Source: Candidatus Uhrbacteria bacterium | GTDB taxonomy: Bacteria > Patescibacteriota > Patescibacteriia > 2-12-FULL-60-25 | Direction of reading: 5' to 3' | DNA length: 64,000 nt | Assembly (NCBI GenBank): GCA_020850575.1 | Contig: JADZEJ010000002.1 | Span: 238,511 to 302,510 of the forward strand | Part shown: piece after piece, positions 13,663 through 28,450 of the stretch | Numbering within the stretch: position 1 is the stretch's first letter | Layout of the letters: each line of letters opens with the position of its first letter | The notes under the pieces: generated by a model | Told to the model about the DNA's origin: nothing | The model's input: only the letters and a program-made list of their open reading frames with translations | Database searches by the model: none | Translations under genes and position numbers: made by a program

Positions 13663-14748
13663 CTAAATAAGCTTTTGCATTATGATTTGCCACCGACTTT
13701 CCCAATCAAATTGCGACAGTACACGCTCGCGTGCATTTTTTCCAATCTTCGCAGCTTGTTCGGTATCAACGAGCAACGTACGAATCGCTTGTGCAACTTC
13801 CTCTGCACTCGTTGGATCCACAAGAATTCCGGTTTTGCCATCTATCACCGCTTCCATCGCGCCTCCTGAACATCCGGCAATTGTAGGTTTTCCTGCCATA
13901 GCCGCTTCAAGATACACGATACCAAATCCTTCTATATCATCAGCAGTTTCACGTGATGGCATGCAGAAAATGTCGCAAGCAAAAAACCAATCCCATTTTT
14001 GTTCATCGTTTGCAGAAACCCACATCACATCGACACCGACAGTTTTTGCCATTTCTTCCAGGCGTCCACGATCGGTTCCGGAACCGATCACGACATATCG
14101 AACTGATAACTCCGATTGAATCTTTGCCATTGCTTGAATGGTTACATCGATTCCTTTACGAGGAACAAAACGTGAAACCGTAAGCACGATTTTCATCTCA
14201 TCGCCGAGACCTAATTTTTTTCGCGCTTGTTTTTGTTCCTTCTTCTCACGCAAACGGATGCCTGGAGTTATTATGATCGATTTGACATTGTCCGGAGCAC
14301 ATCGTTCTTGCAAAAGGTTGGCCGTGGCCTGGCTATTCACGAAAAGCGCACGAGCTCGTTTACAGATCAAGCGTAACAAAAATCGTTTCCAGGTTGATGA
14401 TGCCAACTTTAAATCCAAACCATGAAACAGAAGACTATACTCTGGACCTCCGAATATCCGTGCAATCCAAGCAGCGAAACCGACTGGAAACACATGACTG
14501 ATTAAAACCTGCTCATCGGTTGCAATTTTTGTCCGAAATAATCGCACAAGCGGCCACCACACAGGCTTTTGTGTTTGAAACATTGGTAGCGCCATCACAT
14601 GACCTGGTCCATCCGTTTGATGTTCTTCTGGAACAACAACACGCATTCTACCAGCTGCCTCCTGCACCAATTCAGACACATAGCGCGCAACACCCCCAAC
14701 TTCTGGCGGATAATCAAGCGTCACAAGAACAAGACGTTTAAGAGGCAT
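13663..14748 (-). CDS. GT-B fold glycosyltransferase (family 4/1)
   Basis: Has the EGFGIVYLEAAMAGKPTIA motif. The MPLKRLVLVTLDYPPEVGG start is at 14748. The ORF track extends to 14805. Confidence 0.85.
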   Translation of the reverse strand: MPLKRLVLVTLDYPPEVGGVARYVSELVQEAAGRMRVVVPEEHQTDGPGHVMALPMFQTQKPVWWPLVRLFRTKIATDEQVLISHVFPVGFAAWIARIFGGPEYSLLFHGLDLKLASSTWKRFLLRLICKRARALFVNSQATANLLQERCAPDNVKSIIITPGIRLREKKEQKQARKKLGLGDEMKIVLTVSRFVPRKGIDVTIQAMAKIQSELSVRYVVIGSGTDRGRLEEMAKTVGVDVMWVSANDEQKWDWFFACDIFCMPSRETADDIEGFGIVYLEAAMAGKPTIAGCSGGAMEAVIDGKTGILVDPTSAEEVAQAIRTLLVDTEQAAKIGKNARERVLSQFDWESRWQIIMQKLI

Positions 14749-16195
14749 GTATTTTTTCAGGAATGCTGGCTCGACGAAAACTAAGAATTCGTCGAATATC
14801 AGCAACGGTAATCAGGCGAAAGAGAAAAGCTGCACACACCGCAACCGCGGCTCCAAACAATACCGTTGGTATTATTGGCATGTATTCTCCAACTTCATGC
14901 CATGCTATCCAAGATGCAACAGAAGCGAATGTTGTTCGAGTCAAAATAGAGGTATGGATTTTCCATCCACCAGCGTCTCTTGCTGTCAAAACGGCACCAA
15001 TGAGATACAAACTCCAAAAACTAAAAATCGCTGCCCAAGCAGCACCTATCGGTCCCATACTCGGAACCAATACTGCGTTCAATAAAACATTAATAAACAT
15101 GGTTGCAACCATGGCTGTGGTTTTCAATCGAGCACGATGTGATGCATTGAGTAGAGAGCCGATTGGAAAATCCAAAAAAATTGGAATTAATACCCATGGC
15201 AAAATTTCGAGGACGGGTATGGTTGCCAAATACGTATTACCATACAATATCTTAATCAAAAATCCCGCCAAGCCCGACAATCCTGCTGCTAATGGAAAAG
15301 AGACAGCTGCCATAAAACGTAACGATCCAACAAATGTTTCTCGTAATTCTTGATGCGACTGTTTTGCCCAGGCTCGAGACAAGGCCGGATACAATGCCGC
15401 TATAAACGTTAGCGGTAAAAACTGTAGGGCATAAGTCAGTTTATAAGCAACGGAATAATATCCAACCGCTTGTTCGCCGTAAAATGCTTGAATCAATAAA
15501 CTATCAACGTAGGAATACACTTTGACTGCAATACCTGCCACAGCAAAAGGCACAGCTTCATGCATAAGTGCCATAAAATCAGCTTTGATCGGACTCGTCC
15601 ATGCAAGTTCTAGTTTTTTAAATTGAACCAAAGCCCAAAATACATTCCACAAACTGCCAAGTAACAATGCTGCAACCAAAGCCACCGGACCAAGATCAAA
15701 ATATGCGACTGAAATTGCAACAATTGTTGTCAGAATTTGTCCGATTAACATGCCTATTGCTTCAGGTTTCAATTTTTCATGCCCTCGCAAAATTCCGTAT
15801 AATACAAGATGAAAAGTGTCTGCCGTCATGACCAAACAAGCTACGCCAATGGTTGCAAGTGTTAGCGCATCGACTTGCTTGAAATATCCGTAAGACAAAG
15901 CACATATAATAGCGATTGGTACCAAAACACATTTAGCCCGAATAGCGGCTGAAAGATAACGTACTGCCTGCTCTCTTTGTCCTGCAATGGCACGAATAAC
16001 CACTGGCGTCATTCCCAGGTCTGCTAACGTGACAAAAATAGAGGTCACGGACACGCCAAAAAAATAGACACCGGTGACCTGCGGACCACTCCAACGCGCA
16101 ACCAAGGTGAAGCTGATAAAAGCTAAAACCTTGTTTAAAGTAGTTGCAATCACCAAATAACTCGCATTTTTAGCGATAATTGCGCTTTGAGACAT
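14738..16195 (-). CDS. Wzx-like MOP-family polysaccharide flippase
   Basis: 485-aa protein with about 12-14 TM segments, first in the glycosyltransferase operon. Confidence 0.75.
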   Translation of the reverse strand: MSQSAIIAKNASYLVIATTLNKVLAFISFTLVARWSGPQVTGVYFFGVSVTSIFVTLADLGMTPVVIRAIAGQREQAVRYLSAAIRAKCVLVPIAIICALSYGYFKQVDALTLATIGVACLVMTADTFHLVLYGILRGHEKLKPEAIGMLIGQILTTIVAISVAYFDLGPVALVAALLLGSLWNVFWALVQFKKLELAWTSPIKADFMALMHEAVPFAVAGIAVKVYSYVDSLLIQAFYGEQAVGYYSVAYKLTYALQFLPLTFIAALYPALSRAWAKQSHQELRETFVGSLRFMAAVSFPLAAGLSGLAGFLIKILYGNTYLATIPVLEILPWVLIPIFLDFPIGSLLNASHRARLKTTAMVATMFINVLLNAVLVPSMGPIGAAWAAIFSFWSLYLIGAVLTARDAGGWKIHTSILTRTTFASVASWIAWHEVGEYMPIIPTVLFGAAVAVCAAFLFRLITVADIRRILSFRRASIPEKIHAS

Positions 16196-16287: not shown

Positions 16288-16344
16288 ATATTTTCACCTT
16301 GTGAAACTGACTTTTTGGCAGATTCTCGAATGTGCCTAATAGTC

Positions 16345-16391
16345 ACCTACGGACGGCTCATAACACCAAACCAACCCCTAACTCCGTAGGT
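16345..16391 (+). promoter_or_regulatory. 5' UTR stem-loop ahead of the high-GC orphan gene
   Basis: ACCTACGGA (16345-16353) pairs with TCCGTAGGT (16383-16391). The RBS GAGG at 16395-16398 lies just downstream. Confidence 0.4.
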
Positions 16392-16403
16392 CATGAGGTC
16401 AAA

Positions 16404-17639
16404 ATGGTCATCAATTCTCCTTCACAGTTTCTCGCGGCCATGCAGCAGGTCAACCAGGTCGGTATTCCCGAGCTCATCGAAGCCGAAGCTGAGATGAAGT
16501 CGGAAGTCGTCGAGACCAAAAAGCCGGCTCTGCCGGTGGACATGCGTCCCGAGTGCAAACTCGTGACCTGCGGAGAGCGGTTCACGCCCCCCGAGGGTTA
16601 CATCGACGGCTACTGCCGCAAGTGCCATCCCGATGGATGGGCGTTCGCCGAAGATCGCAAGACCAAGGTGCAGGTGCCCTCGGTGAGGATCTGTAGCAGG
16701 ACGGACTGTCTCAAGGCGTTCATTCCGCCTAAGCAGTACCCCTTCGCCGCCAACTGCCCGACCTGCCACGCCAAGGACGTGGCGGAGCGCAAGGCTCTCT
16801 GGGCTAAGCGCACCGAGGAAGACCGGAGGCTTGCCGAGGAGCGCCGTGCAAACGGCGTGATCAAGGCGCGTGACAAGGAGGAAGCGAGGCTCAAGACCGA
16901 GGCCGCCAAGCAGGCGCGTCTCCAGGCTGTGGGCTGCCCATCCTGCAAGACCTGCCATCGGTTCTTCGAACCGGTGTACGCAGGTGCGCTGTACTGTCAG
17001 CCCTGTGCGCGCGAGTACAAGCGCAAGCAAGTTGAGGACTACGCCAAGGCCCAAGCCGATCAGAAGGCTCGGGCAGACGCAGATAAAGCGCTCGCCGAGC
17101 GCGGCATCCTGACGCAGAGCGAGCGCGCGCGCCGCTTCGAGGAGCTGAAGTCGCTCTTCGTCGCTGGGAAGGACATGCCGGAAGGCACGACCCTGACCCG
17201 GAACGGGACGCAGCTCGTCTTCGTCCAGCTGACGAAGGATACGCACCCCGATGGCTCGCCTAAAAAACTGAGCCTGTCGGGTCACTGTTCGCTCACCTCG
17301 ACCGAGTGCGCCGAGGCAGAGGCTCTCAAGGCCAAGGCCGAGGTCGCGAAGCGCAAGCTCGAGACCGAGCGCGCCGAGGCCGAGCGCGCTCGCAAGGTGC
17401 TCGAGGCGAAGAAGAAGGAGCTTGGCGAACGGTACCTCGAGGGCACACTGCCCGCAGAGGTGACTGCGCTGGTCATCACCGAGCAGACCGGAAAGAAGGG
17501 AGAGACCAAGTCTCTCCTCCGGATCAGCTTTGCGGACGGCAGCCCGTCCATCGACATGCCGGTCCCCGTCAAGGAGACCAAGAAGGCTAAGTCGAAGAAG
17601 GACGAGGGCGCCAAGAAGGGTAAGAACAACAAAAAGTAA
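16404..17639 (+). CDS. high-GC orphan protein with three zinc-ribbon-like repeats and a Lys/Glu/Ala-rich coiled-coil tail
   Basis: ATG at 16404 sits 5 nt after GAGG. Strong GC3 codon bias. Repeats are CKLVTCGERFTPPEGYIDGYCRKC, CSRTDCLKAFIPPKQYPFAANCPTC and CPSCKTCHRFFEPVYAGALYCQPC. The ORF track starts at a GTG at 16332. Confidence 0.75.
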   Translation: MVINSPSQFLAAMQQVNQVGIPELIEAEAEMKSEVVETKKPALPVDMRPECKLVTCGERFTPPEGYIDGYCRKCHPDGWAFAEDRKTKVQVPSVRICSRTDCLKAFIPPKQYPFAANCPTCHAKDVAERKALWAKRTEEDRRLAEERRANGVIKARDKEEARLKTEAAKQARLQAVGCPSCKTCHRFFEPVYAGALYCQPCAREYKRKQVEDYAKAQADQKARADADKALAERGILTQSERARRFEELKSLFVAGKDMPEGTTLTRNGTQLVFVQLTKDTHPDGSPKKLSLSGHCSLTSTECAEAEALKAKAEVAKRKLETERAEAERARKVLEAKKKELGERYLEGTLPAEVTALVITEQTGKKGETKSLLRISFADGSPSIDMPVPVKETKKAKSKKDEGAKKGKNNKK

Positions 17640-17904: not shown

Positions 17905-17927
17905 ATACGTTTCTTCATATTCAATAG

Positions 17928-18654
17928 CTACACATCTTTTTTTCTTGTCCAGAAACAAATACTCGGAAACAACTGTTCTTTTAAGCGAAGATCTGTGACT
18001 TTTTTTGAGATTTCCGCTTCAATATGAACAATCTCACGCATCAATTCTTCGTTCATATGACTTTTCACCAAACGCACTAAGTTTGGCATATTATTCCAAG
18101 TAACTTCTTCGATATCACATTGTTTTTCTAATAACGATTGAACCCATTCAATTTTGAGATAACGCGCGACTTTATACTCTGGAATAAAACGGATTAATGG
18201 CGTACCGCATAGACGCGTTTGAATCCATTCTTTTGTATTTGATGGATACAGCGCGTGTCCTAAATCATACAAGTGAATCACTTCTCCACCCACCCGTGCC
18301 ATCTTGACAGAAAATTTTAGTAACTATTCTAATTTTTTTACATGCTCAAGAACACTTAAAGAAAAAACAATATCAAATTGTCCTTGCAATGGCTGATCAT
18401 ATCCTAATCCTTGTTGAATACTTGCCTGAGTAAAAGACGATAACCTTGTTTGTGCTTTTCTTGCTGATTGTGGATCTGGTTCAATCCCAATATATTCGAT
18501 ATTTGAAAATTTTTGCAGAAGCTGCTCTGCGATTTCTGATGTACCACAACCAATTTCAAGTATTCGTATTGTCTTTCTATCGTATTTCTGTATTTTTTTG
18601 TATTTTCTCTACAAATGTATATTTTGAAGGTTTTGTTGGAAACATATTATTCAT
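17928..18654 (-). pseudogene. class I SAM-dependent methyltransferase, disrupted
   Basis: Motif I RILEIGCGT. The N-terminal MNNMFPTKPSKYTFVEKIQK is in another frame across an A7 run near 18591-18600. An in-frame TAG lies at 18324-18326 (LEHVKKLE*LLKFSVKMARVGGEV). Confidence 0.7.
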
Positions 18655-18700
18655 TAATACAACTTTCACGAAATCTAGGCTCACTGAAAAATAAGATACC

Positions 18701-19377
18701 TCAGCATTTTGAATTCTCGCTACTATTTTTTGAGGTATTCTTTGCTAAGACTAAAAAAGACAATCCTAACAAACTCGGAAATATTTTAGATAGTCGACGC
18801 ATTAGATACCCAAGTACTCTTTTATCCGTCCAAAATGTATTTGTAACTGTTCTATCAATTTGCCAACCTGTTTTTTTTAATAATTCTTTTAAAACTGTAT
18901 CCGTAAACCAGTACATATGACCTTTCTTAGGATGATTATTTTCTGGTACCCCCCAATAAGGACTTGTAAACGCGCCGGAAGTGAACAAAAATTAGGAACC
19001 GAAATAATAATTTGATCAATATTGCGGGACTGAAGAGTAGACAGAATTTTTTCTGGTTCAAGAAGGTGCTCTAACACGTCTAATAAAACCGCTGTCTTTA
19101 TTTTTTTATCCGGCAATATACCACTCCCAAAATCAAAAAATTCCGCATTCAATTTTTTTTCTCGACAAATATTAACGGAAGAAGCAGAAAAATCTACTCC
19201 CCATGAGTCTAATCCTATCTCTTTCAATTTTTGTAATAAAAATCCGTCTCCACACCCAATATCAACAATTGGCTCATTGTTTTTGTTTAACCATGCAAGC
19301 GCTTGTCGATGACGGAAAACTTCCAGCTGATGGTGCCGCTCCCAATATTGATCTTGAAATGAAGAAAGCATGCTCAT
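18701..19377 (-). pseudogene. class I SAM-dependent methyltransferase, frameshifted
   Basis: Motif I IVDIGCGDG and LLDVLEHL. The frame breaks in a T5 run near 18980 (..IIISVPNF | LFTSGAFTSPYWGVPENNHPKKGHMYWFT). Confidence 0.75.
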
Positions 19378-19420
19378 AATATATTTTTAGTATATCCCGT
19401 GCGATTTACTCGCGCAATAC

Positions 19421-19447
19421 AAAAAACTCGCATACTGTGAGTTTTTT
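19421..19447. terminator. bidirectional rho-independent terminator, probably the ancestral rpsI terminator
   Basis: A-run, ACTCGCA, loop TAC, TGTGAGT, T-run. It lies just outside attL. Confidence 0.7.
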
Positions 19448-19486
19448 GTTCAATATTTCGTTTTGAATATTGTGGATCTTGGCGAT

Positions 19487-19506
19487 TAACGCTTTGACCA
19501 CTAAGG
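19487..19506. repeat. attL direct repeat (relic copy of the rpsI 3' end)
   Basis: TAACGCTTTGACCACTAAGG matches 27885-27904 at 19 of 20 positions. Confidence 0.75.
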
Positions 19507-19633
19507 TTCGCGCGGTTCCTCTTTTCTACGGCCGCTTTCTGGCGGCCTCTATGTATGAAAATTACGTCTCAACCTTGACCCAAGCTTAGCTTGTAATACC
19601 TACTTGGTCAAGTAATCGGAATAAAAAGGGCTT

Positions 19634-19810
19634 CTAGGCAAGTTTCGCCAAGGTTTGACCCTGGCGAGCTTTGCGGCGATGGCGTTGGACGATCTTGTGA
19701 ACCGTTGTCCAATGGAGGTTGAATTCGCCAGCCACCTCCCGAATTGTACTACCCGATAAACATTTTCTCACGATTTGCAGATTCCGCTGCGATTTTTCTG
19801 GCCTGGACAT
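19634..19810 (-). CDS. possible 58-aa helix-turn-helix protein (excisionase or regulator candidate)
   Basis: Hand-found ORF MSRPEKSQRNLQIVRKCLSGSTIREVAGEFNLHWTTVHKIVQRHRRKARQGQTLAKLA. It has an HTH-like core and overlaps the integrase 3' end out of frame by 62 nt. Confidence 0.4.
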   Translation of the reverse strand: MSRPEKSQRNLQIVRKCLSGSTIREVAGEFNLHWTTVHKIVQRHRRKARQGQTLAKLA

Positions 19811-20819
19811 AGGATTGCTCTAAGATATTACCTACTGGCTCAGATGCAGACTGTTTTTTATCCACCGATGCATCGAACGATGCCTCAAACACCTTGCGAT
19901 ACTCATGCTCCACATCCGTGTTTTTGTACCCCATATATATGGTGGTCGAACGGATGTTCGCGTGGCCCATCATGACTTGAAGATATCGGAGATTCACGTT
20001 TCTTTTGACGCCAAGAGATGCGAATCCATGTCGGCATGAGTGAGGCGTGATCCGCTTCTCGATACCTAGCTTCGCCCTGGCCGCACGGAACGTCTTTTGA
20101 ACCGCGCTGCGATCCATGCGTTTTGGCTCCGTGGCCGTATTGAAGCTGATGAATAGAGCTTCGGAACCGCTGTCCTTCCGACCAAGGATACGTTCCCTAA
20201 CTTCGATCCAGCGTGCCAGCAAACGATTCGTTTCATCGTCCCAATACACCTCACGCTTGTGATATTTGCACTTAAAAGTCTTTGCAACTGCTTTTCGCTG
20301 GTTCAGATCAATGTCGTCCACGTTCAGATTGAGCATCTCGCCTAAACGCAGACCCGTGTTGTAAAGGAACGCGACGATTGTCTTATCCCGCAATTCCTTG
20401 GGATACATTTCATCGTACAGGTTTAAGATCGCTTTATATTCATGAGGCTCAAGAAACGGATGGGACTCCTTTTCGACACCCTGCGGAACCGGAATGAGAT
20501 CGTCATTGATTTTAACTTTCCCCTGACGATAGAGCCATTTCCACAACGTCCGGAGTGACGTGATGTACAGAGCTCGCGTACCGCCCCTCAGTCCCCGATT
20601 CTCCAGCCAGATGTGATACCTGGAGAGATCGTCGATATCACAATCGGTCAGTACCTTCCCGAGTTCGTTCAGGTACTTGGTCAATGAATAAAGCGCGAAC
20701 TTATAGGACGAGACTGTAGCCGGAGACCGGCTGCCGCCCAGCCAAACGAGGAAACTGTCGATAATCTTATCGTTATCGATCATATAAACCGCCCACCCTA
20801 CTTCCGCCTCGGATTGCAA
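19749..20819 (-). CDS. tyrosine site-specific recombinase (phage integrase / XerC-D family)
   Basis: Motifs NTGLRLGE, HSCRHGFAS and GHANIRSTTIYMGY (catalytic R..HxxR..Y). An alternative start MIDNDK lies at 20783. Confidence 0.9.
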   Translation of the reverse strand: MQSEAEVGWAVYMIDNDKIIDSFLVWLGGSRSPATVSSYKFALYSLTKYLNELGKVLTDCDIDDLSRYHIWLENRGLRGGTRALYITSLRTLWKWLYRQGKVKINDDLIPVPQGVEKESHPFLEPHEYKAILNLYDEMYPKELRDKTIVAFLYNTGLRLGEMLNLNVDDIDLNQRKAVAKTFKCKYHKREVYWDDETNRLLARWIEVRERILGRKDSGSEALFISFNTATEPKRMDRSAVQKTFRAARAKLGIEKRITPHSCRHGFASLGVKRNVNLRYLQVMMGHANIRSTTIYMGYKNTDVEHEYRKVFEASFDASVDKKQSASEPVGNILEQSYVQARKIAAESANREKMFIG

Positions 20820-21065
20820 GCCTTGGCGGTTTCGGATGGGCGGTATTACTACACTCTCACGATATGCAAGAGTCGGACAACCATATCAAAGTTGCCCGAG
20901 AAAGCAATAACCAACCTACCCGCGCCGTTTGCAATGACATCCCATTGGGACGCCGCCCTATTCGGGCACGATGCGGTTAAAGGGTCGGGAATTAAATTAG
21001 TAAGCCCCGACAAGCGGTTGTACCGTAGCTTGGCTTGGGAAAGCAAGCAAATCAGAAATAACGCG

Positions 21066-22067
21066 TTATTTATCAGAAATTAGCCATGCGATGTTTTGAA
21101 CTTTTTCAGATAGCTTATGAGTGTATCCGTGGCTAAGCAGTCCCACGTAAGATGCGACTGTCTGAGCGTTTGGACTCTGCCTCACTCTTTTCAGGATCCT
21201 CGATTTCGTCTTCTGGCGCGGGACGCGATGGTGTGGGAAATGCACCCAGCCGAGAAAATCCACTCCCGAGGCAAGCGTCTTAATGAAGACTTTATTCGGA
21301 TACAGTTCCAAGTCCAATGGTCCAGCGAGAAATGCGGCGATTTTAGGAAGGCATTCGAGCAACTCCTGTCGGTCGCGTGATAAAAATACAAAATCGTCGG
21401 CATAGCGAGCGTAGTATTTCGCCCTCAATTCATGCTTCACATACCGATCAAACTCATTCATGTAAATGTTAGCAAAGATCTGTGAAGTAAGATTGCCAAG
21501 CGGTATACCTTTCCCCGGGCGAGTCTGAAAGCTCACGATGACGCGTCGAAGTAAATCTAGAAGCCACCTGTCTGCGATTCTCCGATCCAAAATCTCGAGA
21601 AGGATTTGGTGATTGATGCTCGCAAAAAATTTCCGGATGTCGCATTTCAAAACCCAACACGTTTTAGTGCCGTTCTTGCTCGCTTTTCTAGACAGCCTCT
21701 CGAAGCGCTCAAGCGCACGATGCAACCCCTTGGTTTTCTGGCATGAAAAAGAATCGAAAATGAACACACTGGCGAAAAATGGATATAGCTTCCGATGAAT
21801 GGCATGATGCAGCAACCTATCCCGCACGGTCGCTTTGTGGATTTCCCGCGGCTTTGGATCGTTAATGCGGAAATGCGAGTAAGTGCCATGGCAATACGTG
21901 CCATTCATCAAATCCAGATGCAAATTCGCGATCTCGTCCCCGAGACGGAGCATGAACTCCTGCACATCTTTCTTCTTTCGTTTCCCTCGGATAAACTCTT
22001 GCCAAGCTTCACATAAATTTTCCATCGATACGATTTCATCGAAGGAGATAAATAATAATTTTCTCAT
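21066..22067 (-). CDS. DGR reverse transcriptase
   Basis: Motifs GIPLGNLTSQIFANIYM (DGR-type xxSQ motif) and YARYADDFVF (YxDD), about 333 aa from MRKLLFISFDE. A TR and VR lie nearby. The ORF track extends to 22145. Confidence 0.9.
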   Translation of the reverse strand: MRKLLFISFDEIVSMENLCEAWQEFIRGKRKKKDVQEFMLRLGDEIANLHLDLMNGTYCHGTYSHFRINDPKPREIHKATVRDRLLHHAIHRKLYPFFASVFIFDSFSCQKTKGLHRALERFERLSRKASKNGTKTCWVLKCDIRKFFASINHQILLEILDRRIADRWLLDLLRRVIVSFQTRPGKGIPLGNLTSQIFANIYMNEFDRYVKHELRAKYYARYADDFVFLSRDRQELLECLPKIAAFLAGPLDLELYPNKVFIKTLASGVDFLGWVHFPHHRVPRQKTKSRILKRVRQSPNAQTVASYVGLLSHGYTHKLSEKVQNIAWLISDK

Positions 22068-22081
22068 AGAGGAGTATGTTA

Positions 22082-22092
22082 CCCCCCCCCCC
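22082..22092. repeat. C11 (G11 on the minus strand) homopolymer between the RT and avd starts
   Basis: Direct count of eleven consecutive C. Confidence 0.9.
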
Positions 22093-22116
22093 GCAAAAAT
22101 CACGTCAAATCTTCCC

Positions 22117-22464
22117 GTGTTGCAGAAGGTTGTTGATGTATACAAAATCTGGCACGCCCATTATTCAAATTTCCCCCGTCTTTCTAAATTTTCACTCGGC
22201 GCAAAAATAGACTCTCTGTTCACCGACCTGATCGAGCTCATCTTTCTTGCCGGTTATGCCGGATCCGATCAAAAATACACGTTCGTAGTACGCGCATCTA
22301 CAAAACTCGATCTACTTAAATTTTTCATGCAGGCCGCATGGGAAGTAAAGTGCTTGGACCAAAGAAAGTACGCGGCACTCGCTGTACCGCTGAACGAAAT
22401 CGGAAAAGACATTGGTAGCTGGCAAAAATTCCTACAAACGAAACAGCCCCCATCCAAAGAATGA
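22117..22464 (+). CDS. avd: Avd-like four-helix-bundle protein (accessory variability determinant family)
   Basis: KIWHAHYSNFPRLSKFSLGAKI...LKFFMQAAWEVKCLD...IGKDIGSWQKF resembles the Avd / 23S-IVS four-helix-bundle family. GTG start at 22117. The 21883-22116 part of the tracked ORF is antisense to the RT. Confidence 0.75.
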   Translation: MLQKVVDVYKIWHAHYSNFPRLSKFSLGAKIDSLFTDLIELIFLAGYAGSDQKYTFVVRASTKLDLLKFFMQAAWEVKCLDQRKYAALAVPLNEIGKDIGSWQKFLQTKQPPSKE

Positions 22465-22493
22465 GGGCGTTCGTTATAAAAACGTGAAGAGAT

Positions 22494-22624
22494 TTGCGGA
22501 CGAACAGGAACCGGTTGTCGGAGTTCCACTCGTTGTCGAACCAGTTGTTGTCGAGGATGCGCCTGTCGGAGTTGCTGTTCAGCATCGCGACGTTGCGGTT
22601 GTCGTCGTACATCGTGGACGAGCC
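22494..22624 (-). repeat. DGR template repeat (TR)
   Basis: 131 nt homologous to 22998-23131. It is adenine- and AAC-rich on the minus strand (9 AAC codons in the VR frame). Confidence 0.85.
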
Positions 22625-22877
22625 GTCCTGTCCGTGTCGGGAGCCATCCAGATCACCACCGCTTGAATCATCTCGCGGTTGAATTTTATTCGGGGCCGTT
22701 AGCCCGCCAGCTCCCAACACCAAGTATCTTCAGTTCATGAACGAGCCGACGCACGCTGCCGACCGGCGTACCGCCCGGCATTCTGGCAAACGAGCTCATT
22801 CAGATTTCGACCGCCTGCAACCGTAATCGCAAGCTGTTTCGTCTACTATCCGTGTGTAATTTTATCAAAAAGCAAGC

Positions 22878-22929
22878 GACCCCGTCCAACGCGCGAATCC
22901 AAGTTTCGGATTGCGTGTCGGACGGGGTC
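22878..22929 (-). other. long GC-rich hairpin downstream of the VR (terminator and/or DGR homing-associated stem-loop)
   Basis: GACCCCGTCC pairs with GGACGGGGTC, with an imperfect interior and an apical AATCC/GGATT stem. A T5 run follows on the minus strand. Confidence 0.6.
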
Positions 22930-22993
22930 TGAGCGCCAAGAGTCCAAGGTCCCAAGAGCCTTTTTAAGGGCCGAGGGACCGAGGGTCCAAGTG

Positions 22994-23659
22994 CTACTTG
23001 CGGACGAACAGGAACCGGAAGCCGGAGCGCCAACCGCGGGCGAACCAGTCGCTGCCGAGGATGCGCCCGTCGGAGACGCTGCACAGCATCGCGACGAAGC
23101 GGTCGTCGCCGTCGTACCGCGTGGACGAGCCGAGAGCGACGATCCAGAACTGACGCTGCAGCTCCGGGTTGGCCTTGGCGAACGCGTACGCCTCGAGGTG
23201 GGTCGCGGGGCGGTAGCCCAGCTTGTCCATCTCAGCGATGGCGTCCTCGGACTCGATCGCCCGGTTGAAGTGCTTGACGAGCATGATGCGCTCGCCCGGC
23301 GTCTGGTCGATCTCGGCGCACGACGAGTGATTCTTCCACTCGTAGTTGCCGTAGAACAGCTCTGACACGCCGTCCTTCGAGAACTCGCTCTCGAGCTTGG
23401 CCTTGTCGCGCGGCATCTCGTAGCTGACCGGCACGCGGTACTCGCCATCGACGAGCGGTCGCTCCATCTCCGAACCGGCCGGGACGATGAGATCTGCGAT
23501 CTGCTTCTGCAGAGCGCTTTCCTTCACCACCCGCCGCAGGTGCTGCATGGTTCCGCCCTTGGCCATGACGGCGTGAGCGATCACCTTGAAGACCTCGAAC
23601 GCGAAGCCGAGATTGCTGAGTACGTCACCGATCGCCTGATCCTTCTTGTTCTGTCGCAT
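22994..23659 (-). CDS. DGR variable (target) protein, C-terminal VR of C-type-lectin-like style
   Basis: ATG at 23659 sits 6 nt after GGAGAG. The C-terminus is ..GSSTRYDGDDRFVAMLCSVSDGRILGSDWFARGWRSGFRFLFVRK. High GC. The tracked ORF starts at a GTG at 23686. Confidence 0.85.
   Translation of the reverse strand: MRQNKKDQAIGDVLSNLGFAFEVFKVIAHAVMAKGGTMQHLRRVVKESALQKQIADLIVPAGSEMERPLVDGEYRVPVSYEMPRDKAKLESEFSKDGVSELFYGNYEWKNHSSCAEIDQTPGERIMLVKHFNRAIESEDAIAEMDKLGYRPATHLEAYAFAKANPELQRQFWIVALGSSTRYDGDDRFVAMLCSVSDGRILGSDWFARGWRSGFRFLFVRK
22998..23131 (-). repeat. DGR variable region (VR)
   Basis: Aligns to the TR with about 22 substitutions at TR adenines, 2 at other bases and one extra codon. The last 20 nt are identical (CGGTTCCTGTTCGTCCGCAA). 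Confidence 0.85.
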
Positions 23660-23790
23660 GGTCGTCTCTCCGTTTTTCCGGCTCACCTCTTAATCCCGCA
23701 CCATGCAGGACCACAAGGCTTGCCTATCCGTGACCGAAGCTAAGTAGACACTTGGAAATGTAAGGTTCAGAACCGTAGTCTGAATAAAAC

Positions 23791-23819
23791 AAGATAGCAT
23801 AAAACAGGCCTTTTGTCAA
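23791..23819 (-). promoter_or_regulatory. sigma70-type promoter for the DGR target gene
   Basis: On the minus strand: TTGACA, a 17-nt spacer ending in TGc, then TATCTT. Confidence 0.55.
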
Positions 23820-23866
23820 GGGATAAACGCCAAAATTTGGCTAAAATATAATATTTCTACGAAAAT

Positions 23867-25550
23867 TTAGCCAATTCTCTGAATTTCTTCAGTTAACACA
23901 CTGCTAATAGCACGTCTCCACTCAGATGCCTCTTGACTATCACGTAGAATGCAACAGCGATCTAGCAAATCCTTCACGTACTGGACGTTAACTTTGTTGT
24001 TAATAAATTGCGCCTCAAAAAATTCCTTAAACTGGATAAGCGTAAAAGGCACGATATTCAATCGAACCCTCTGTTCGTCTTTGTTGAACCACTCACCTCT
24101 CCGAAAAGTTTCGAGAGTATTAATGTCTATCTTATTCGCGATGAATAATCCGTAGACCGGTTTGGTTGTCCGTTCTGCAATCACAGACACATGACGGCGT
24201 ACCGGCTCACCCTCAACCGCCTCCTGTCTTGAACTCTCAGTCAGCGTAACCTCAACCACCAATATAAAATTCTCCAGTTCAAAAATTAAATCCGGTCCGT
24301 TGCCTGGAGCTGTACCAATTGGAAGAAAATCTTGATCAATTTTAAATCTTCGCGCTTCGTATGGTTTATTGATCAAACTATACTATTGCCAGAAAAGCTC
24401 TCCATAAAACCCATTCAAAATACGCAGCCGCTTCAGCTTTAGGAACCTGAATTTGATTGCCTTCGGAAAGGGTGGCGGAACGGAGTTTCCCTGAGATCAA
24501 ATCCATGTACGTTGCGATCTCTTTCCATTCAGCTGCTTGGTCAATCGCATATTTCTCTTCATTGGCACGACTGAGTAATTCCTCAGCTTGGAATCTTACT
24601 TGTCCGATATCCGCAGGCGTCTTTAGCGATTCCTTTTTGACTTCCAGCTTCAAATTTTTATCTTTCAGGCGTTCGAGTAAGTCGTCGAGTACCACCAAAG
24701 CTGAATCCTTATCGTCAGTTGGCAGCGCGGCTCCATTGCAAAGTGCCGTGAAGTAGGCAATTTCAGACTGAGGCATCTGACTTTGCTGAACGAACTTCTC
24801 AATAAATAGATGCTTCTCTGGGATGATGGAAATTCCCCTTCCAGCACCCTGAACCAAACCAGTCGCCTTTAAATAACGAATATTTGTGTCCGCGTAATCA
24901 TTGAACGTCTGCTCTTTATAATCATGCACTACTGAAGCCTTTTCACGTTCAACTCGATCGAATTTACGTTTATTATCACTCGATAATCGACGTGATCGAA
25001 TATCCAAAACGCGATGAACCACTTCACTGAGATCATCGTCGCTATTTGTCAGCTGTGCTACAACAGCCATTTCGATAAAATTGATTCTGCTATCACCGGT
25101 TTCTCTTTCAAGTTCCAACATGATTTTCAAAATATGCTGCAACGGAGAGAATACAGAAAACTCATAGTCATCTTCCAGCACCGATGGTATGACGTAGGCC
25201 GCAAGCGATCTTAAAAAACACTCCTGCATTGCAGGAACCGTCTCTGCTTTAATGAGTCTTAAACCGTTCGGTGTGATTCTATCGACTTCACCAATTTGCG
25301 CCTGATCAATGCCGAGAGATTTTGGGATCTCTGGATACAAAAAACCGAGCTTGGTTAATGCCGATCGCCACTTCCGTCCGACACTATAGGTTTTATCCTC
25401 GCCCAGCTCCACAATGCCATGCTCCCCGAGGAGTTTACGAAATGCAATGTCCTGCTCCTTACCTCGCAAGTTCCCTTGAAGTTCCGATCCATAGAGCGCT
25501 ACAAGGCCATCGCGCAGGCGAAATGGACTGCGGACGGTTGTGTTTCCCCC
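23867..25550 (-). pseudogene. AlwI-family-like type II restriction endonuclease, frameshifted and lacking its own start
   Basis: Has GNTTVRSPFRLRDGL, GRKWRSALTKLGF and YADTNIRYLKATGL. The frame breaks at 24376-24378. The nuclease core continues as PDLIFELENFILVVEVTL...GEPVRRH. The family call is from memory. Confidence 0.55.
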
Positions 25551-26051
25551 GCCATAGGTCGATGACCGAATGATGGAGCGGTACCAAGTCGAACCAATCT
25601 TGAACAGGTACACGCGACCTACGGTGAAGATCGTCGTTTGGTCTCCTGCGATCGTGTGTTGGTTTGCTGCAGAGACGGTCGTGACGGTTGATTGCAGAAT
25701 CATGCCTTGGGTTACCGGTCCGATCTCGATTTGCATGCCGTCAAAATGCGCTTTCGTGAGATGAAGCTCGATGACGGTTCCTGCGGCGTGCGTAGCGGTC
25801 GTCGTGCCGTTGTATCCGCGCGTATCGATTGTGCATGTGACCGTCCCGCCTGAAATCGACATAGCCGAAAGCAAGATCTGTTCCTGCTCAATCGTGAGAA
25901 TCGCCTTGGATCCAGCCGGCATGTTCCACGATTGCGTACCAAGAACGGACGATGAAGATCCTGTGAAATTGCCGGACGTGAGCGAAGAAAGGAGCTGGGC
26001 GTCCAGCAGGAAAGAAGCGCGATCGAGAATGTAGATGTTTTGGTATGGCAT
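25545..26051 (-). pseudogene. phage tail-fibre-like N-terminal fragment (5' part of chimeric ORF 24378..26051)
   Basis: MPYQNIYILD...TRGYNGTTTATHAAGTVIELHLTKAHF resembles phage fibre N-termini. It is high GC, unlike the AlwI-like part. Confidence 0.45.
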
Positions 26052-26052
26052 A

Positions 26053-26313
26053 TCAGAAATAACGTGAATAATGGATTTCAGTCACCGCGATCGAGAAACC
26101 CGAGCCGGTGAGCGTGATCTTGAAGATATTGGTACCCGCTACGACTTTCGGAAGGATGCCCGTGTAATCAATGTCGACTCCGTTTTTTGTGACTCGTTTA
26201 TTCTCTCCGTCAATGATGACCTGATCGCCATTCGTGAAGCTCCCAGCGATGATGAGCTTGTCGCCATTCGTTGTGTTCTCCCGTGTGATTTGCGATACGG
26301 TGCCGGCCGTCAC
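26053..26313 (-). pseudogene. C-terminal fragment of a phage distal-tail (Dit-like) protein
   Basis: ..DQVIIDGENKRVTKNGVDIDYTGILPKVVAGTNIFKIT.. matches the typical siphophage tail-component C-terminus. Only about 86-95 aa remain. Confidence 0.4.
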
Positions 26314-26318
26314 GAGGG

Positions 26319-26867
26319 TCAGGTACGCGAGAGCATCCGCTTGCCGTTGACGGTCGCGATCGCGTCGACCAAGTCCGCGTATCCGTGGACGCGCGAGTAG
26401 ATGAGCTTTTCGGCGTGTTGGAATCGCACGTCATGTTCGTTGAACCAGCTCAGGAACGCGTTGATGCCGGCACGGACGCGTCCGTCCGAATCGTCCGGAA
26501 TAGACGGAACGTCCGATCGATGGATGACTGCGAGCGCGAATGCTTCCGCGTACGCGTGCACCATGTCTCCGATGGATGCCGCTTGTTCCTTCTTGATCTG
26601 GTGTTGGCGGACGGCTTCCTCGATAACCGGAACGATTTCCTCGACCGTGAACGGTCCGGAATTGGATTCGAGGAATGAACGGAGGTGCTTCTCGGCAAGC
26701 CCAACTGCCCATGGGATGAGGAATCGGGACTTGTCGATGATGCCCGTGCAAGCCGTGACCGAAAGCAGGTATTCTTTCGAACCTTCGATCCGGTAACGGT
26801 GCGAGTCAGGCAGATGCTCGAGCGTGATTTCTCCGCCGTAGAGCTTCTCGGTGATTTTTTCAGCCAT
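26319..26867 (-). CDS. phage PD-(D/E)XK-type exonuclease, apparently C-terminally truncated
   Basis: HRYRIEG..LLSVTACTGIIDKSRFLIPWA..GDMVHAYAE..GYADLVDAI pattern. It ends abruptly where the tail fragment begins. Confidence 0.5.
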   Translation of the reverse strand: MAEKITEKLYGGEITLEHLPDSHRYRIEGSKEYLLSVTACTGIIDKSRFLIPWAVGLAEKHLRSFLESNSGPFTVEEIVPVIEEAVRQHQIKKEQAASIGDMVHAYAEAFALAVIHRSDVPSIPDDSDGRVRAGINAFLSWFNEHDVRFQHAEKLIYSRVHGYADLVDAIATVNGKRMLSRT

Positions 26868-26871
26868 ATGG

Positions 26872-27702
26872 TTAGACGGCTGCCGCGACTTTGGTTCGCG
26901 CGGTTTCGAGTGCCTGATTCGGATCGACTTGCGGTTTGGCTGGCGCGGGCGGAGTCACCGGAGCTTCGGTTTTTGGTTCCGCAGCAACAGGTTTCTTTGA
27001 CCACGCATAGCTTTCCGTGCCATGGACGGCCTTAATGATCTTCGAAAAGTCCGGCTCGATGATTTTCCCGAGCTGGCCAGTCCGATCCTTGGCCGTGAAC
27101 TTGTCCGATGAAGGATCCACGAATATGACGCGCTTCGATTCGCCGTCGGCGGTTTGAACGACCGTCATGTAGCCGACCACGTCAACCATGTTCACGATGT
27201 CCTTCGAGACTTTGGTCGTGATAAGCGGACGCAAAAGAACCCGATCTTCGTCAGGCTTGTCGTCCACGTGGGCGATCAAAAGAACGTGCATGCCGGAGTC
27301 CCGGAGCACCTTCACGTAGTCGCGCATGGTTTTACGGAGCCACCCCAAACCAGCTTGGCTGGGAGAGCCATCCTTTTGTACGAGCTTGGAATCGCCGAGA
27401 GCCCCCATGTGGCGCATGAGCTTTTCCATGAGTTCACCGATAGGGTCGATGACGGCAGTTTCGTACCCGCTCTTTTTGAGAGCTTCGGTGTACTCTCGCA
27501 TGTCGGCCCATTTCTCGACGTGAGCCACGTCGAGTTTGATCCCGCGCAATCCGAAATACTTCGAACCGTTCTCGCAGTCCGCCATGAGCGGCTTGGGAGC
27601 GGTTGATGCAAACGTTGATTTGCCGACGCCGCCTTCGCCATACACGAGCATGACGAGCGGAGGTTTAACCGACGGATCGCCGGTGTTGATGATTTTGAGC
27701 AT
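26872..27702 (-). CDS. Sak4-like AAA_24 phage recombination ATPase
   Basis: LVMLVYGEGGVGKSTFASTAPKPLMADCENG (Walker A plus an AAA_24-style N-terminus). RBS AAGAGGA upstream. Confidence 0.8.
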   Translation of the reverse strand: MLKIINTGDPSVKPPLVMLVYGEGGVGKSTFASTAPKPLMADCENGSKYFGLRGIKLDVAHVEKWADMREYTEALKKSGYETAVIDPIGELMEKLMRHMGALGDSKLVQKDGSPSQAGLGWLRKTMRDYVKVLRDSGMHVLLIAHVDDKPDEDRVLLRPLITTKVSKDIVNMVDVVGYMTVVQTADGESKRVIFVDPSSDKFTAKDRTGQLGKIIEPDFSKIIKAVHGTESYAWSKKPVAAEPKTEAPVTPPAPAKPQVDPNQALETARTKVAAAV

Positions 27703-27804
27703 AGTTTGGTCCTCTTAATGAATGGAATAAGTCCTCTGCCGGATTTACCGCCGGCACGGCCCGACCTTGAGAGGCGATGACGAATTCCATACAAGAGGCG
27801 CCAA

Positions 27805-27841
27805 AAACAAAACTCCCTGGCTGTTCTGCCAGAGAGTTTTT
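27805..27841. terminator. island-supplied rho-independent terminator just downstream of rpsI
   Basis: On the minus strand: AAAAACTCTCTGGC, loop AGAACA, GCCAGGGAGTTTTGTTTTT. Confidence 0.6.
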
Positions 27842-27883
27842 GACCGTAGATTTGGGGTTTCGAGCGACTGTGGAGCGTTGGTA

Positions 27884-28450
27884 CTAACGCTTTGACCACT
27901 GAGGAGCACGACGTGCACCCTTGAGACCAAACTTTTTGCGCTCCTTTTTGCGTGGATCACGCATCAAGTAGCCAAGTTTCTTTAAAGACTTACGGAAGGT
28001 TGGATTGAGTTCAACTAAGGCGCGAGATACACCGTGTCGAACTGCTTCAGCTTGTCCACGAACACCACCTCCTAATACCTTAGCTGAAATATCAATCGAT
28101 GTGTCTTGACCTGTTACCTTGAGTGGATTCACGATTTGCTCGCGAAGATCATAGGTAGTGAAATATTCTTCAAATTTCTTTCCATTGATGGTGATATTTC
28201 CTTTGCCGTTCTTGATCAAACGAACACGAGCGACAGAGGTTTTGCGACGACCGACGGCTGGAATGAATGAACCGCCTTTGCTAACCTTGGCTGCTTCCAT
28301 TTCGCTTGCTTCAAGGGATTCAAGAGCAACTTCTGGCTCAACAGACTTGGTAGCTGGAGCTTTTTTTGCAGTAGCTTTTTTTGCTGGTGCTTTCTTCTTT
28401 TCTTCCGTCGCTACTGGAGCTTCGGATGTCGTTTTTTTAGTGGTTGCCAT
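27884..28450 (-). CDS. rpsI: 30S ribosomal protein S9 with a Lys/Ala-rich N-terminal extension
   Basis: GRRKTSVARVRL...RDPRKKERKKFGLKGARRAPQWSKR. About 55 extra N-terminal residues. Confidence 0.95.
   Translation of the reverse strand: MATTKKTTSEAPVATEEKKKAPAKKATAKKAPATKSVEPEVALESLEASEMEAAKVSKGGSFIPAVGRRKTSVARVRLIKNGKGNITINGKKFEEYFTTYDLREQIVNPLKVTGQDTSIDISAKVLGGGVRGQAEAVRHGVSRALVELNPTFRKSLKKLGYLMRDPRKKERKKFGLKGARRAPQWSKR
27885..27904. repeat. attR direct repeat (functional rpsI 3' end)
   Basis: TAACGCTTTGACCACTGAGG encodes ..PQWSKR plus part of the stop codon. Confidence 0.75.

Follow-up and report, generated by a model that had tools for sequence, protein, structure and literature searches.

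A probable prophage remnant in the last codons of the ribosomal protein gene rpsI of a Candidatus Uhrbacteria bacterium

What separates the ribosomal protein gene rpsI from the flippase gene that lies close to it in related bacteria, and how did it come to be there? We asked this of a 64,000-nucleotide stretch of contig JADZEJ010000002.1 from a Candidatus Uhrbacteria bacterium (the window, whose own positions are used throughout), in which rpsI and a Polysacc_synt/MurJ-like flippase gene (14738-16195, minus strand) are 11.7 kb apart, against 0.05-2.2 kb in relatives. An earlier sequence-only reading had described an 8.4-kb integrase-bearing island (19487-27904) inserted in the 3' end of rpsI between 20-bp direct repeats, and had proposed an attB/attP model for it. 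Our comparison with related loci, given L numbers below, indicates that the island is very probably the defective remnant of a temperate tailed phage that integrated site-specifically into the last codons of rpsI. A large internal deletion has removed much of this prophage, and a diversity-generating retroelement (DGR) is the main cargo that survives.

The repeat, TAACGCTTTGACCACT[A/G]AGG, occurs exactly twice in the window, at 19487-19506 (..ACTAAGG) and at 27885-27904 (..ACTGAGG). There is no third copy on either strand with up to 5 mismatches, and 100 dinucleotide-preserving shuffles yielded no match at up to 2 mismatches. The pair stretches imperfectly to 36 nt (19471-19506 versus 27869-27904, 81% identical; repeat finder, D7). 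The right copy, the attR core TAACGCTTTGACCACTGAGG (27885..27904), lies within rpsI (27884..28450, minus strand), an open reading frame (ORF) for a 188-aa S9 protein with the C-terminus ..RAPQWSKR and a TAG stop, to which Pfam Ribosomal_S9 was assigned on the identical L001 protein; the integration target is the last 6 codons of the gene. The variable position of this copy is of host type (a plus-strand G, giving a CAG codon), and the third base of the TAG stop is the complement of 27884, just outside the repeat, and comes from the island. The left copy, the attL core TAACGCTTTGACCACTAAGG (19487..19506), reads CCT TAG TGG TCA AAG CGT TAA on the minus strand; it is a relic of the S9 C-terminal codons with the element-type base (TAG for CAG) and a TAA stop, and the integrase gene adjoins it. 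The direct repeats bound the island with one copy in the target gene, and homology to related elements ends at these cores. The island is a GC mosaic (~42-63%), compared with 42-45% in the flanking ribosomal-protein gene cluster. Searches of the window for tRNA, tmRNA and Rfam matches gave none, so no RNA-gene target has been overlooked.

Related elements in other hosts fix both boundaries. On the left, the island arm (P arm, 19507..19633, minus strand) runs from a small helix-turn-helix (HTH) gene to the core and is conserved with L105 and L110 up to the core, the homology stopping at 19482-19484. An identical 21-mer, CCTTAGTGGTCAAAGCGTTAA, lies ~240 nt past the integrase stop in L105-109 and L110-111; in L105 and L110 the sequence before it is homologous to the window, while the sequence beyond is host-specific and forms a terminator, and in L105 the flippase gene follows 2.1 kb further on. 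Since CCTTAGTGGTCAAAGCGTTAA is shared across hosts, the T of TAG (for CAG) is element-derived. In element-borne copies of the S9 end this Gln codon has become a stop, TAG in the window, L105 (4588) and L110 (11277) and TAA in L120 (11261); the attP-type cores of L119 and L122, unlike these, retain CAG.

On the right, the arm (P' arm, 27703..27884, minus strand) begins with TACCAACGCTCCACAGTCGC and carries the intrinsic terminator that replaces the host's, a minus-strand hairpin and U-run at 27840-27809 (13-bp stem, minimum free energy (MFE) -28.1 kcal/mol, z -2.8). TAG followed by TACCAACGCTCCACAGTCGC.., a terminator and an AAA_24 gene recurs past the rpsI stop in L116-118 and L125-126, and variant right arms occupy the same position in L112, L011, L127 and L128. 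The rpsI codons upstream of the shared arm vary with the host, so both the G of the stop codon and the terminator are element-derived, as had been proposed. All 6 right arms that were aligned share a conserved CCACAGT motif, placed 10-15 nt past the stop. RNAalifold on the 6 right arms gave weak covariation support for the terminator (2 compensatory pairs in a poor alignment), so its assignment rests on single-sequence folds. The relic is likewise followed on the minus strand by a hairpin and U-run (19421..19447, MFE -21.3 kcal/mol, z -3.9), which is either the former rpsI terminator or the terminator of an older element; a terminator stands 10-50 nt past the stop at every empty site and every attL that we saw.

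The integrase beside attL (19749..20783, minus strand) is a XerC/D-like tyrosine recombinase of 344 aa, starting at Met13 of its ORF, with a Pfam Phage_integrase match (4.4e-35) and an N-terminal SAM-like domain. It can be aligned to XerA and XerD with the catalytic motifs in place and intact: TGLRLGE, HSCRHGF and GHANIRSTTIY align with the R, HxxR and H..Y of XerA (5hxy). Homologues, likewise of 344 aa and 87-90% identical to it, are present on contigs of two other hosts (L105-109, L110-111), and a scan of IMG/VR for the integrase gave no match. The 58-aa HTH protein encoded between int and attL (19634..19810, minus strand) matches Pfam HTH_Tnp_ISL3, HTH_23 and Mor as well as a PHROG of late transcriptional activators; its sequence is conserved 3' of int in L105, L110 and L120, and it may be a recombination directionality factor or a regulator. 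A different tyrosine integrase, of 393 aa, was observed in L089 (10893-12284; also in L088) beside a relic encoding ARKAPQWSKR*, followed by grpE-dnaK, so a second integrase lineage appears to use the S9 C-terminal codons.

The unoccupied site was found in a sister species. A variant of S9, P0289, from the 90%-identity cluster of the window protein led to contigs that fall into two strain groups by the 1200 nt ending at the rpsI stop; each group is internally 99.4-100% identical, identity between the groups is ~95.5%, and at the nucleotide level each matches the window at ~86%. In the first group the site is empty in L129 and L130, where rpsI ends ..CCTCAGTGGTCAAAGCGTTAA and the host terminator follows, and in L131, where TAG and TACCAAAAAACACTCC.. 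are followed by the same terminator. Within this group L128, 100% identical to L131 over the 1200 nt upstream, carries a prophage with an L011-type arm, and L124, 99.4-99.7% identical upstream to the empty-site strains, carries a small island of four small ORFs, a DGR and an integrase. In the second group L125 and L126 carry a prophage with the window-type arm and L127 one with the L011-type arm. The site in the sister species is therefore either empty or filled by one of three different elements. Past the empty site, L129 and L131 continue for ~120 nt and then into a homologue of window 17908-17154.

The empty site itself varies among near-identical strains, with TAA followed by AACAAAAACACTCC in L129 (4096-4125) and TAG followed by TACCAAAAAACACTCC in L131 (1845-1875); the L131 form has 9 extra bases (TAGTACCAA) in common with the window-type phage arm. 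Either natural variation or the footprint of an earlier cycle of integration and excision could account for the difference.

A wider set of S9 homologues comprises 80 species-level loci from GTDB genomes, of which the closest are labelled Candidatus Uhrbacteria or Patescibacteria group. Among these 80 the phage arm follows rpsI only in L011, and the rpsI-flippase intervals of relatives hold no homologues of island genes except in that locus, where a prophage after rpsI has first two genes 91% and 77% identical to the window AAA_24 and exonuclease genes. The S9 C-terminal peptide is PQWSKR in 40/80 of these loci, and the exact 14-nt TGGTCAAAGCGTTA is found in 8/80.

Junctions of attP type were recovered from related phages. 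Distant relatives of the integrase (49-57% identical) are encoded on 36.7-43.3-kb contigs of phage genes. The 36.7-kb phage contig L120 and the contig L121 have an identical integrase and the same left arm and part ways right after GGTCCAAGCGTTAA (..GTAATGGTCCAAGCGTTAA). Past the core L120 continues with TACTTGGTCACCACAGTCGAC.., a terminator and phage genes, which is attP, and L121 with a different terminator and a host epimerase gene, which is attL. In the 43-kb phage contigs L122/123, ..CGTGCTCCACAGTGGTCCAAGCGCTAG encodes RAPQWSKR* and is followed by the CCACAGT arm, a terminator and phage genes. A further contig, L119, has the same AAA_24 protein as L116-118, and ATAGGGAACGCACCGCGCCCCGCAGTGGTCAAAGCGTTAG at its start runs directly into a right arm of the window type. 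An in-frame stop in the left flank excludes rpsI there, and this flank resembles the integrase-side arm; L119 most probably shows another attP junction.

Every structural element of the proposed attL/attR model has thus been confirmed by comparison, with boundaries exactly at the repeat: the repeat pair, the true rpsI end on the right, the relic on the left and the adjoining integrase all stand as first described. Of the checks that had been suggested, the search for an empty site succeeded in the sister species but not in the window's own species, and an attP junction was seen in related free phage contigs but not for the window element.

The gene content of the island, profiled against Pfam and PHROGs, is that of a broken tailed phage. 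All genes are on the minus strand except avd. The gene nearest rpsI encodes a Sak4-like ssDNA-annealing ATPase (AAA_24; 26872..27702, minus strand; Pfam AAA_24 9.5e-33, PHROG 124 6e-46); it is the first gene of related full prophages, and proteins 88-97% identical to it are encoded next to rpsI in other hosts. It is followed by a phage exonuclease gene (26319..26867, minus strand; PHROG 298) truncated at 182 aa, compared with 259 aa at full length in L112, L114 and L126, and then by the C-terminal 86 aa of a distal tail protein, Dit (26053..26313, minus strand; Pfam SPP1_Dit, PHROG 33), which has 282 aa in L110; these two genes form the left and right edges of the internal deletion. Next comes a tail-fiber N-terminus fused to an AlwI-type restriction endonuclease (23867..26051, minus strand), recognized by matches to Pfam RE_AlwI positions 1-317 and 321-440 on two adjacent ORFs. 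A frameshift at ~24377 divides the endonuclease gene between ORFs 24378-26051 and 23867-24376, and the independent contig L001 shows the same split. The endonuclease is in frame with ~230 codons of tail-fiber-derived sequence. The island contains no DNA methyltransferase to partner it, and the enzyme is probably inactive.

The blastn matches of the island form a mosaic of different parts of related prophages. Positions 27884-26332 match the rpsI-proximal prophage end of L112 (89%), L011 (79%) and L116 (77%), and this exonuclease-side homology ends at ~26332; 26348-25750 match the junction of Dit and fiber genes of L110 (3400-4000); and 23847-23741 together with 23236-19482 match the DGR-integrase end of L105 (76%), L110 (74%) and L124 (93%). 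The AlwI region between them (25750-23850) has no counterpart in the related prophages. In L110 the DGR-integrase module is the end of the prophage, after tape-measure, Dit and Collar-fiber genes, and the prophages of L112, L011 and L116 go on past the shared end with methyltransferases, VRR-NUC, terminase, portal/MuF and capsid genes. The mosaic and the L110 layout imply that a single deletion took out the middle of the phage genome and brought the exonuclease gene up against the end of dit. Terminase, portal/MuF and capsid genes are present in the relatives L011, L112, L116-119 and L126 and tail genes in L110; in the island the terminase, portal, capsid and tail gene set is incomplete, the 86-aa Dit fragment, the fiber N-terminus and the truncated exonuclease being all that remains.

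The island is accordingly not an intact tailed temperate prophage. Nor does it have the make-up of an integrative and conjugative element (ICE) or integrative and mobilizable element (IME) of the streptococcal type, as no relaxase, conjugation or mobilization domain was detected in any island ORF with Pfam or PHROGs. A phage satellite like the phage-inducible chromosomal islands (PICIs) is not indicated either: the island has int and the HTH gene, and the same profiles, which distant homologues could escape, gave no primase/rep, small terminase or capsid-remodeling homologue and hence no replication or packaging-redirecting gene.

The DGR inside the island is complete (21066-23686), with a target gene bearing the variable region (VR), a template region (TR), Avd and a reverse transcriptase (RT). 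The target gene (22994..23686, minus strand, 230 aa) has its VR at the 3' end (~22996-23180; repeats D1/D3 and TR/VR alignment), and the alignment places the TR at 22492..22675, also on the minus strand. The accessory protein bAvd (22087..22464, plus strand; Pfam bAvd 2.5e-12) is supported by gene calls in L001, L105 and L124. The longest RT ORF (21066..22145, minus strand; Pfam RVT_1 1.2e-24) contains the motifs LGNLTSQ and YADD; the true start is probably near 21950, where we place it because the RTs of relatives have 290-333 aa. TR and VR end in the identical 21 nt CCGGTTCCTGTTCGTCCGCAA. In the 3' ~100 nt, which are in register, the differences are almost confined to TR adenines (A-to-N), and an ungapped comparison of 134 nt gives 24 A-to-N mismatches, the others lying mostly in the 5' part, which is out of register through a 3-nt indel. 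An RT, an adenine-specific TR/VR pair and a VR at the 3' end of the target ORF together identify the system as a DGR. The avd gene lies on the strand opposite to TR, RT and target, a layout also seen in L105 and L124, so that a transcript running from TR to RT would pass antisense through avd. L001 and L002, independent contigs of the window strain, both stop in the TR/avd region.

From these features a course of events can be proposed. A temperate tailed phage would have entered the last rpsI codons of its Candidatus Uhrbacteria host (Patescibacteria, or candidate phyla radiation, CPR) by site-specific recombination catalyzed by its XerC/D-like tyrosine integrase. Its attP would have lain ~240 bp downstream of int, past the small HTH gene, and would have consisted of the last six S9 codons with TAG, a short CCACAGT arm and the intrinsic terminator. 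Recombination would create attR in rpsI, leaving the S9 protein unaltered while changing the stop from TAA to TAG and supplying a phage terminator, and attL as a noncoding relic adjoining int. The two diagnostic bases (C/T of the Gln codon and the third stop base) would place the crossover within the 16-nt AGTGGTCAAAGCGTTA; we infer both this position and the order of events from the present arrangement. A later internal deletion would have fused codon ~182 of the exonuclease gene with the 86 final codons of Dit, taking the replication, packaging, head and most tail genes, and most of the fiber gene would have been replaced by the AlwI-type endonuclease gene, since frameshifted. The survivors are both att sites, int, the HTH gene and the complete DGR with its target/VR, TR, Avd and RT.

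Several observations weigh against this account. No empty site of the window's own species was found. An exact look-up of S9 returned only two short contigs of the window strain (L001, L002), both of which carry the island and pass through attR unbranched, which may mean that the remnant is fixed; when the host flanks from the window, L105 and L110 were compared by blastn with the loci retrieved by then, no empty site appeared; and one metagenome scan with the 20-mer had no empty site of the window species among its 12 loci, ten of which were rpsI genes of other lineages with the shared core and ordinary terminators, the remainder being L083, in an ambiguous context, and L088/L089, with a relic beside a different integrase. 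A free or circular attP form of the window element itself was not found, scans of IMG/VR with the 20-mer core and with a degenerate attR/attP arm pattern gave no match, and an exact look-up of the integrase gave no record elsewhere. Finally, the sister-species empty sites lack the 1.6 kb to the left of attL (17909-19486) and continue at the homologue of 17908 and not of 19486, so this DNA is not demonstrably ancestral. The sequence-only reading had taken the DNA beyond the relic for AT-rich host DNA with the ancestral rpsI terminator; the base composition and the terminator are as described, but the segment may be variable DNA or what is left of an older element rather than pristine ancestral host DNA. 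The segment (31-37% GC) contains a truncated-looking 162-aa MetW-like methyltransferase ORF and small ORFs with no family match.

The lack of a same-species empty site is the only support for the view that the gene set separating rpsI from the flippase gene is ancestral and that the 20-nt repeat arose by chance or as a functional duplication, unconnected with mobility. We consider this extremely improbable: the repeat has no match in the shuffles, its boundaries coincide with loss of homology in at least five other contexts, empty and occupied sites coexist at 99.4-100% flanking identity, attP junctions occur in phage contigs, relatives have rpsI and the flippase gene only 0.05-2.2 kb apart, and the island is a GC mosaic. 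The island might instead be a selected, still mobile mini-element (satellite-like or integrative) whose unit is DGR, HTH gene, integrase and att, and which would persist or spread alone or helped by related full phages. In another species this site is occupied by a small island with the same module (L124, at least ~5.6 kb, comprising small ORFs, a DGR and an integrase), its module being 92.8% identical at the nucleotide level to window 23238-19683 against 86% for the host rplM-rpsI region; the same DGR-integrase module stands beside the flippase region in L105; and the window retains int, the HTH gene and both att cores in intact form, with a TR/VR pattern that suggests recent DGR activity. 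The truncated exonuclease (182/259 aa) and Dit (86/282 aa) and the frameshifted endonuclease, however, are marks of decay rather than design; replication, packaging-redirection and mobilization genes were not detected with Pfam and PHROGs; in L110 the same module merely ends the tail region of a full prophage; and the L124 contig does not include the attL end. On balance a mini-element is unlikely.

A third possibility concerns the DNA left of the relic and would explain its absence from the sister-species sites by tandem accretion: 17909-19486 would be an eroded older rpsI element, and the island would have entered later into the rpsI end that this element had restored. The AT-rich composition and broken MetW-like ORF fit such a history, small relic-flanked remnants are known elsewhere (L007, with 550 bp between GTGGTCAAAGCGCTAA copies), and the ~19 nt immediately past the relic stop (TCGCCAAGATCCACA) are similar to the L124 junction on its element side (TCGCCGCAGTCCACA), which is not host DNA because the near-identical L129-131 differ from it after rpsI. 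A similar ATCGCAAGATC, though, also follows the apparently empty L005 site, so the motif may be of host type; there is no second core relic near 17909 or elsewhere in the window even at 5 mismatches, and the segment matches no known phage family. We hold accretion to be possible, with chances somewhat short of even. The flank of the L005 empty site (TAAATCGCAAGATC.. and a terminator) was considered as a match to the left flank of the window and set aside as weak (local alignment score 18 versus 8-16 for other loci). The reading of the island as a defective phage remnant in rpsI remains the one we prefer.

Some further observations concern the same gene end and its surroundings. In L007 (10478-11047) the 550-bp insert between the two GTGGTCAAAGCGCTAA copies has a terminator after each copy, and L022 (7567-7616) and L032 (~10435-10550) have degenerate second copies of the rpsI 3' end 12 and 94 nt past the stop; the second copies in these three loci look like nearly erased remnants of former insertions. 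L003, a metagenome-assembled genome (MAG) contig of the closest GTDB relative (S9 95% identical), terminates exactly at ..GCGTTA (10540-10566), the last base common to attB (TAA) and attR (TAG). The break fits an assembly-graph branch at a polymorphic site, although this is only suggestive. The S9 proteins of the window clade have an N-terminal Lys/Ala/Thr-rich extension of ~55 residues (window 28290-28450), which is missing from some annotations (the 138-aa variants P0288 and P0291 of the same cluster). To the left, a 435-aa Lys/Ala/Glu-rich ORF with several CxxC pairs (16332-17639, plus strand) has 61-66% GC in a region of ~40% GC, and its sole family match is a weak, sub-threshold one to Pfam DUF7564. 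DNA homologous to it (75-79%) lies directly 3' of rpsI at the empty sites of L129 and L131, so this gene is conserved in the clade and convergent with rpsI.

The loci L095-097 and L114 were rejected as informants on the att site, since their AAA_24 genes are 89-97% identical but the upstream arm and neighborhood are different. The arm upstream of AAA_24 in L114 (9503-10001) and L095-L097 has no rpsI-like core, and in L114 it follows DUF218/RmuC. This suggests that the integration module has been exchanged within the AAA_24-bearing phage group.

The mechanism proposed here is textbook site-specific integration, the target gene is known from streptococci, and no concept is altered. What the analysis provides is a precise, cross-validated set of attB, attP, attL and attR for phages of Candidatus Uhrbacteria and related Patescibacteria, which are largely uncultured. 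The attP mimic of the S9 C-terminus is a signature by which phage contigs from metagenomes can be assigned to CPR hosts. The interval between rpsI and the flippase gene is a recombination hot spot, which helps in judging MAG contig breaks such as that of L003, and the integrase, whose chromosomal target is conserved, may serve as a genetic tool. Full-text literature searches gave no report of rpsI as a prophage site in Patescibacteria/CPR; one recent paper describes att-flanked prophages in Absconditicoccaceae, and its text does not contain 'ribosomal protein S9'. A broader and more tentative proposal, to which we give less than an even chance, is that these sites belong to the att system of a widespread, undescribed family of temperate CPR phages targeting the near-universal last six rpsI codons, together with small DGR and integrase islands (window, L124, L105) that may be a retained or mobile module. 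The 14-20-nt core is common to rpsI of many CPR lineages, so int and attP could connect phages with hosts and serve as a tool; if the proposal were true, the sequence of the int/attP pair would suffice to connect uncultured phages with their CPR hosts, and the pair would offer a broad-host integration tool for a phylum poor in genetic tools.

Integration into a ribosomal-protein gene had been called uncommon; rpsI is indeed an unusual target, but it has precedents. The 3' end of rpsI is the target of the site-specific tyrosine integrases of streptococcal ICEs (PMC4701971) and of IMESag-rpsI (PMC5090054), and in group B Streptococcus the prophage integrase type GBSInt5 acts at rpsI, a site termed a hot spot, with integrases also found as singletons without a full prophage (PMC7487436). 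The streptococcal elements that share this site, which comprise ICEs with ICESt3-type conjugation modules, IMEs, PICI-like elements and prophages (PMC4701971, PMC5090054, PMC7487436), resemble the island in using the same gene end and a site-specific tyrosine integrase and in leaving the gene intact. They differ in having Bacillota rather than Patescibacteria hosts and in their integrases, the best tblastn identity of the window protein to GenBank phage records, 115 Streptococcus records included, being <30%; the island, moreover, has no relaxase or conjugation genes and carries a DGR, not resistance genes.

The DGR is like those of BPP-1-type phages and those common in CPR genomes in its RT motif (LGxxxSQ), Avd, adenine-specific TR/VR pair and VR at the 3' end of a small target gene, and the full prophage of L110 has its DGR cassette between the tail-fiber genes and int. 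It is unlike them in that avd lies opposite to TR and RT and that the virion genes which the target would serve have been deleted.

For the manner of integration a classic parallel is phage 21 in icd of E. coli, a lambdoid-type integration into the 3' end of a coding gene in which attP encodes the replacement C-terminus. There, as here, attP carries a second copy of the target ORF's 3' end, which preserves the gene product, the element is bounded by direct repeats and int lies by one att site; in the window, unlike icd, the duplication is very short (16-21 nt, six codons), and the phage adds the last base of the stop codon and a terminator.

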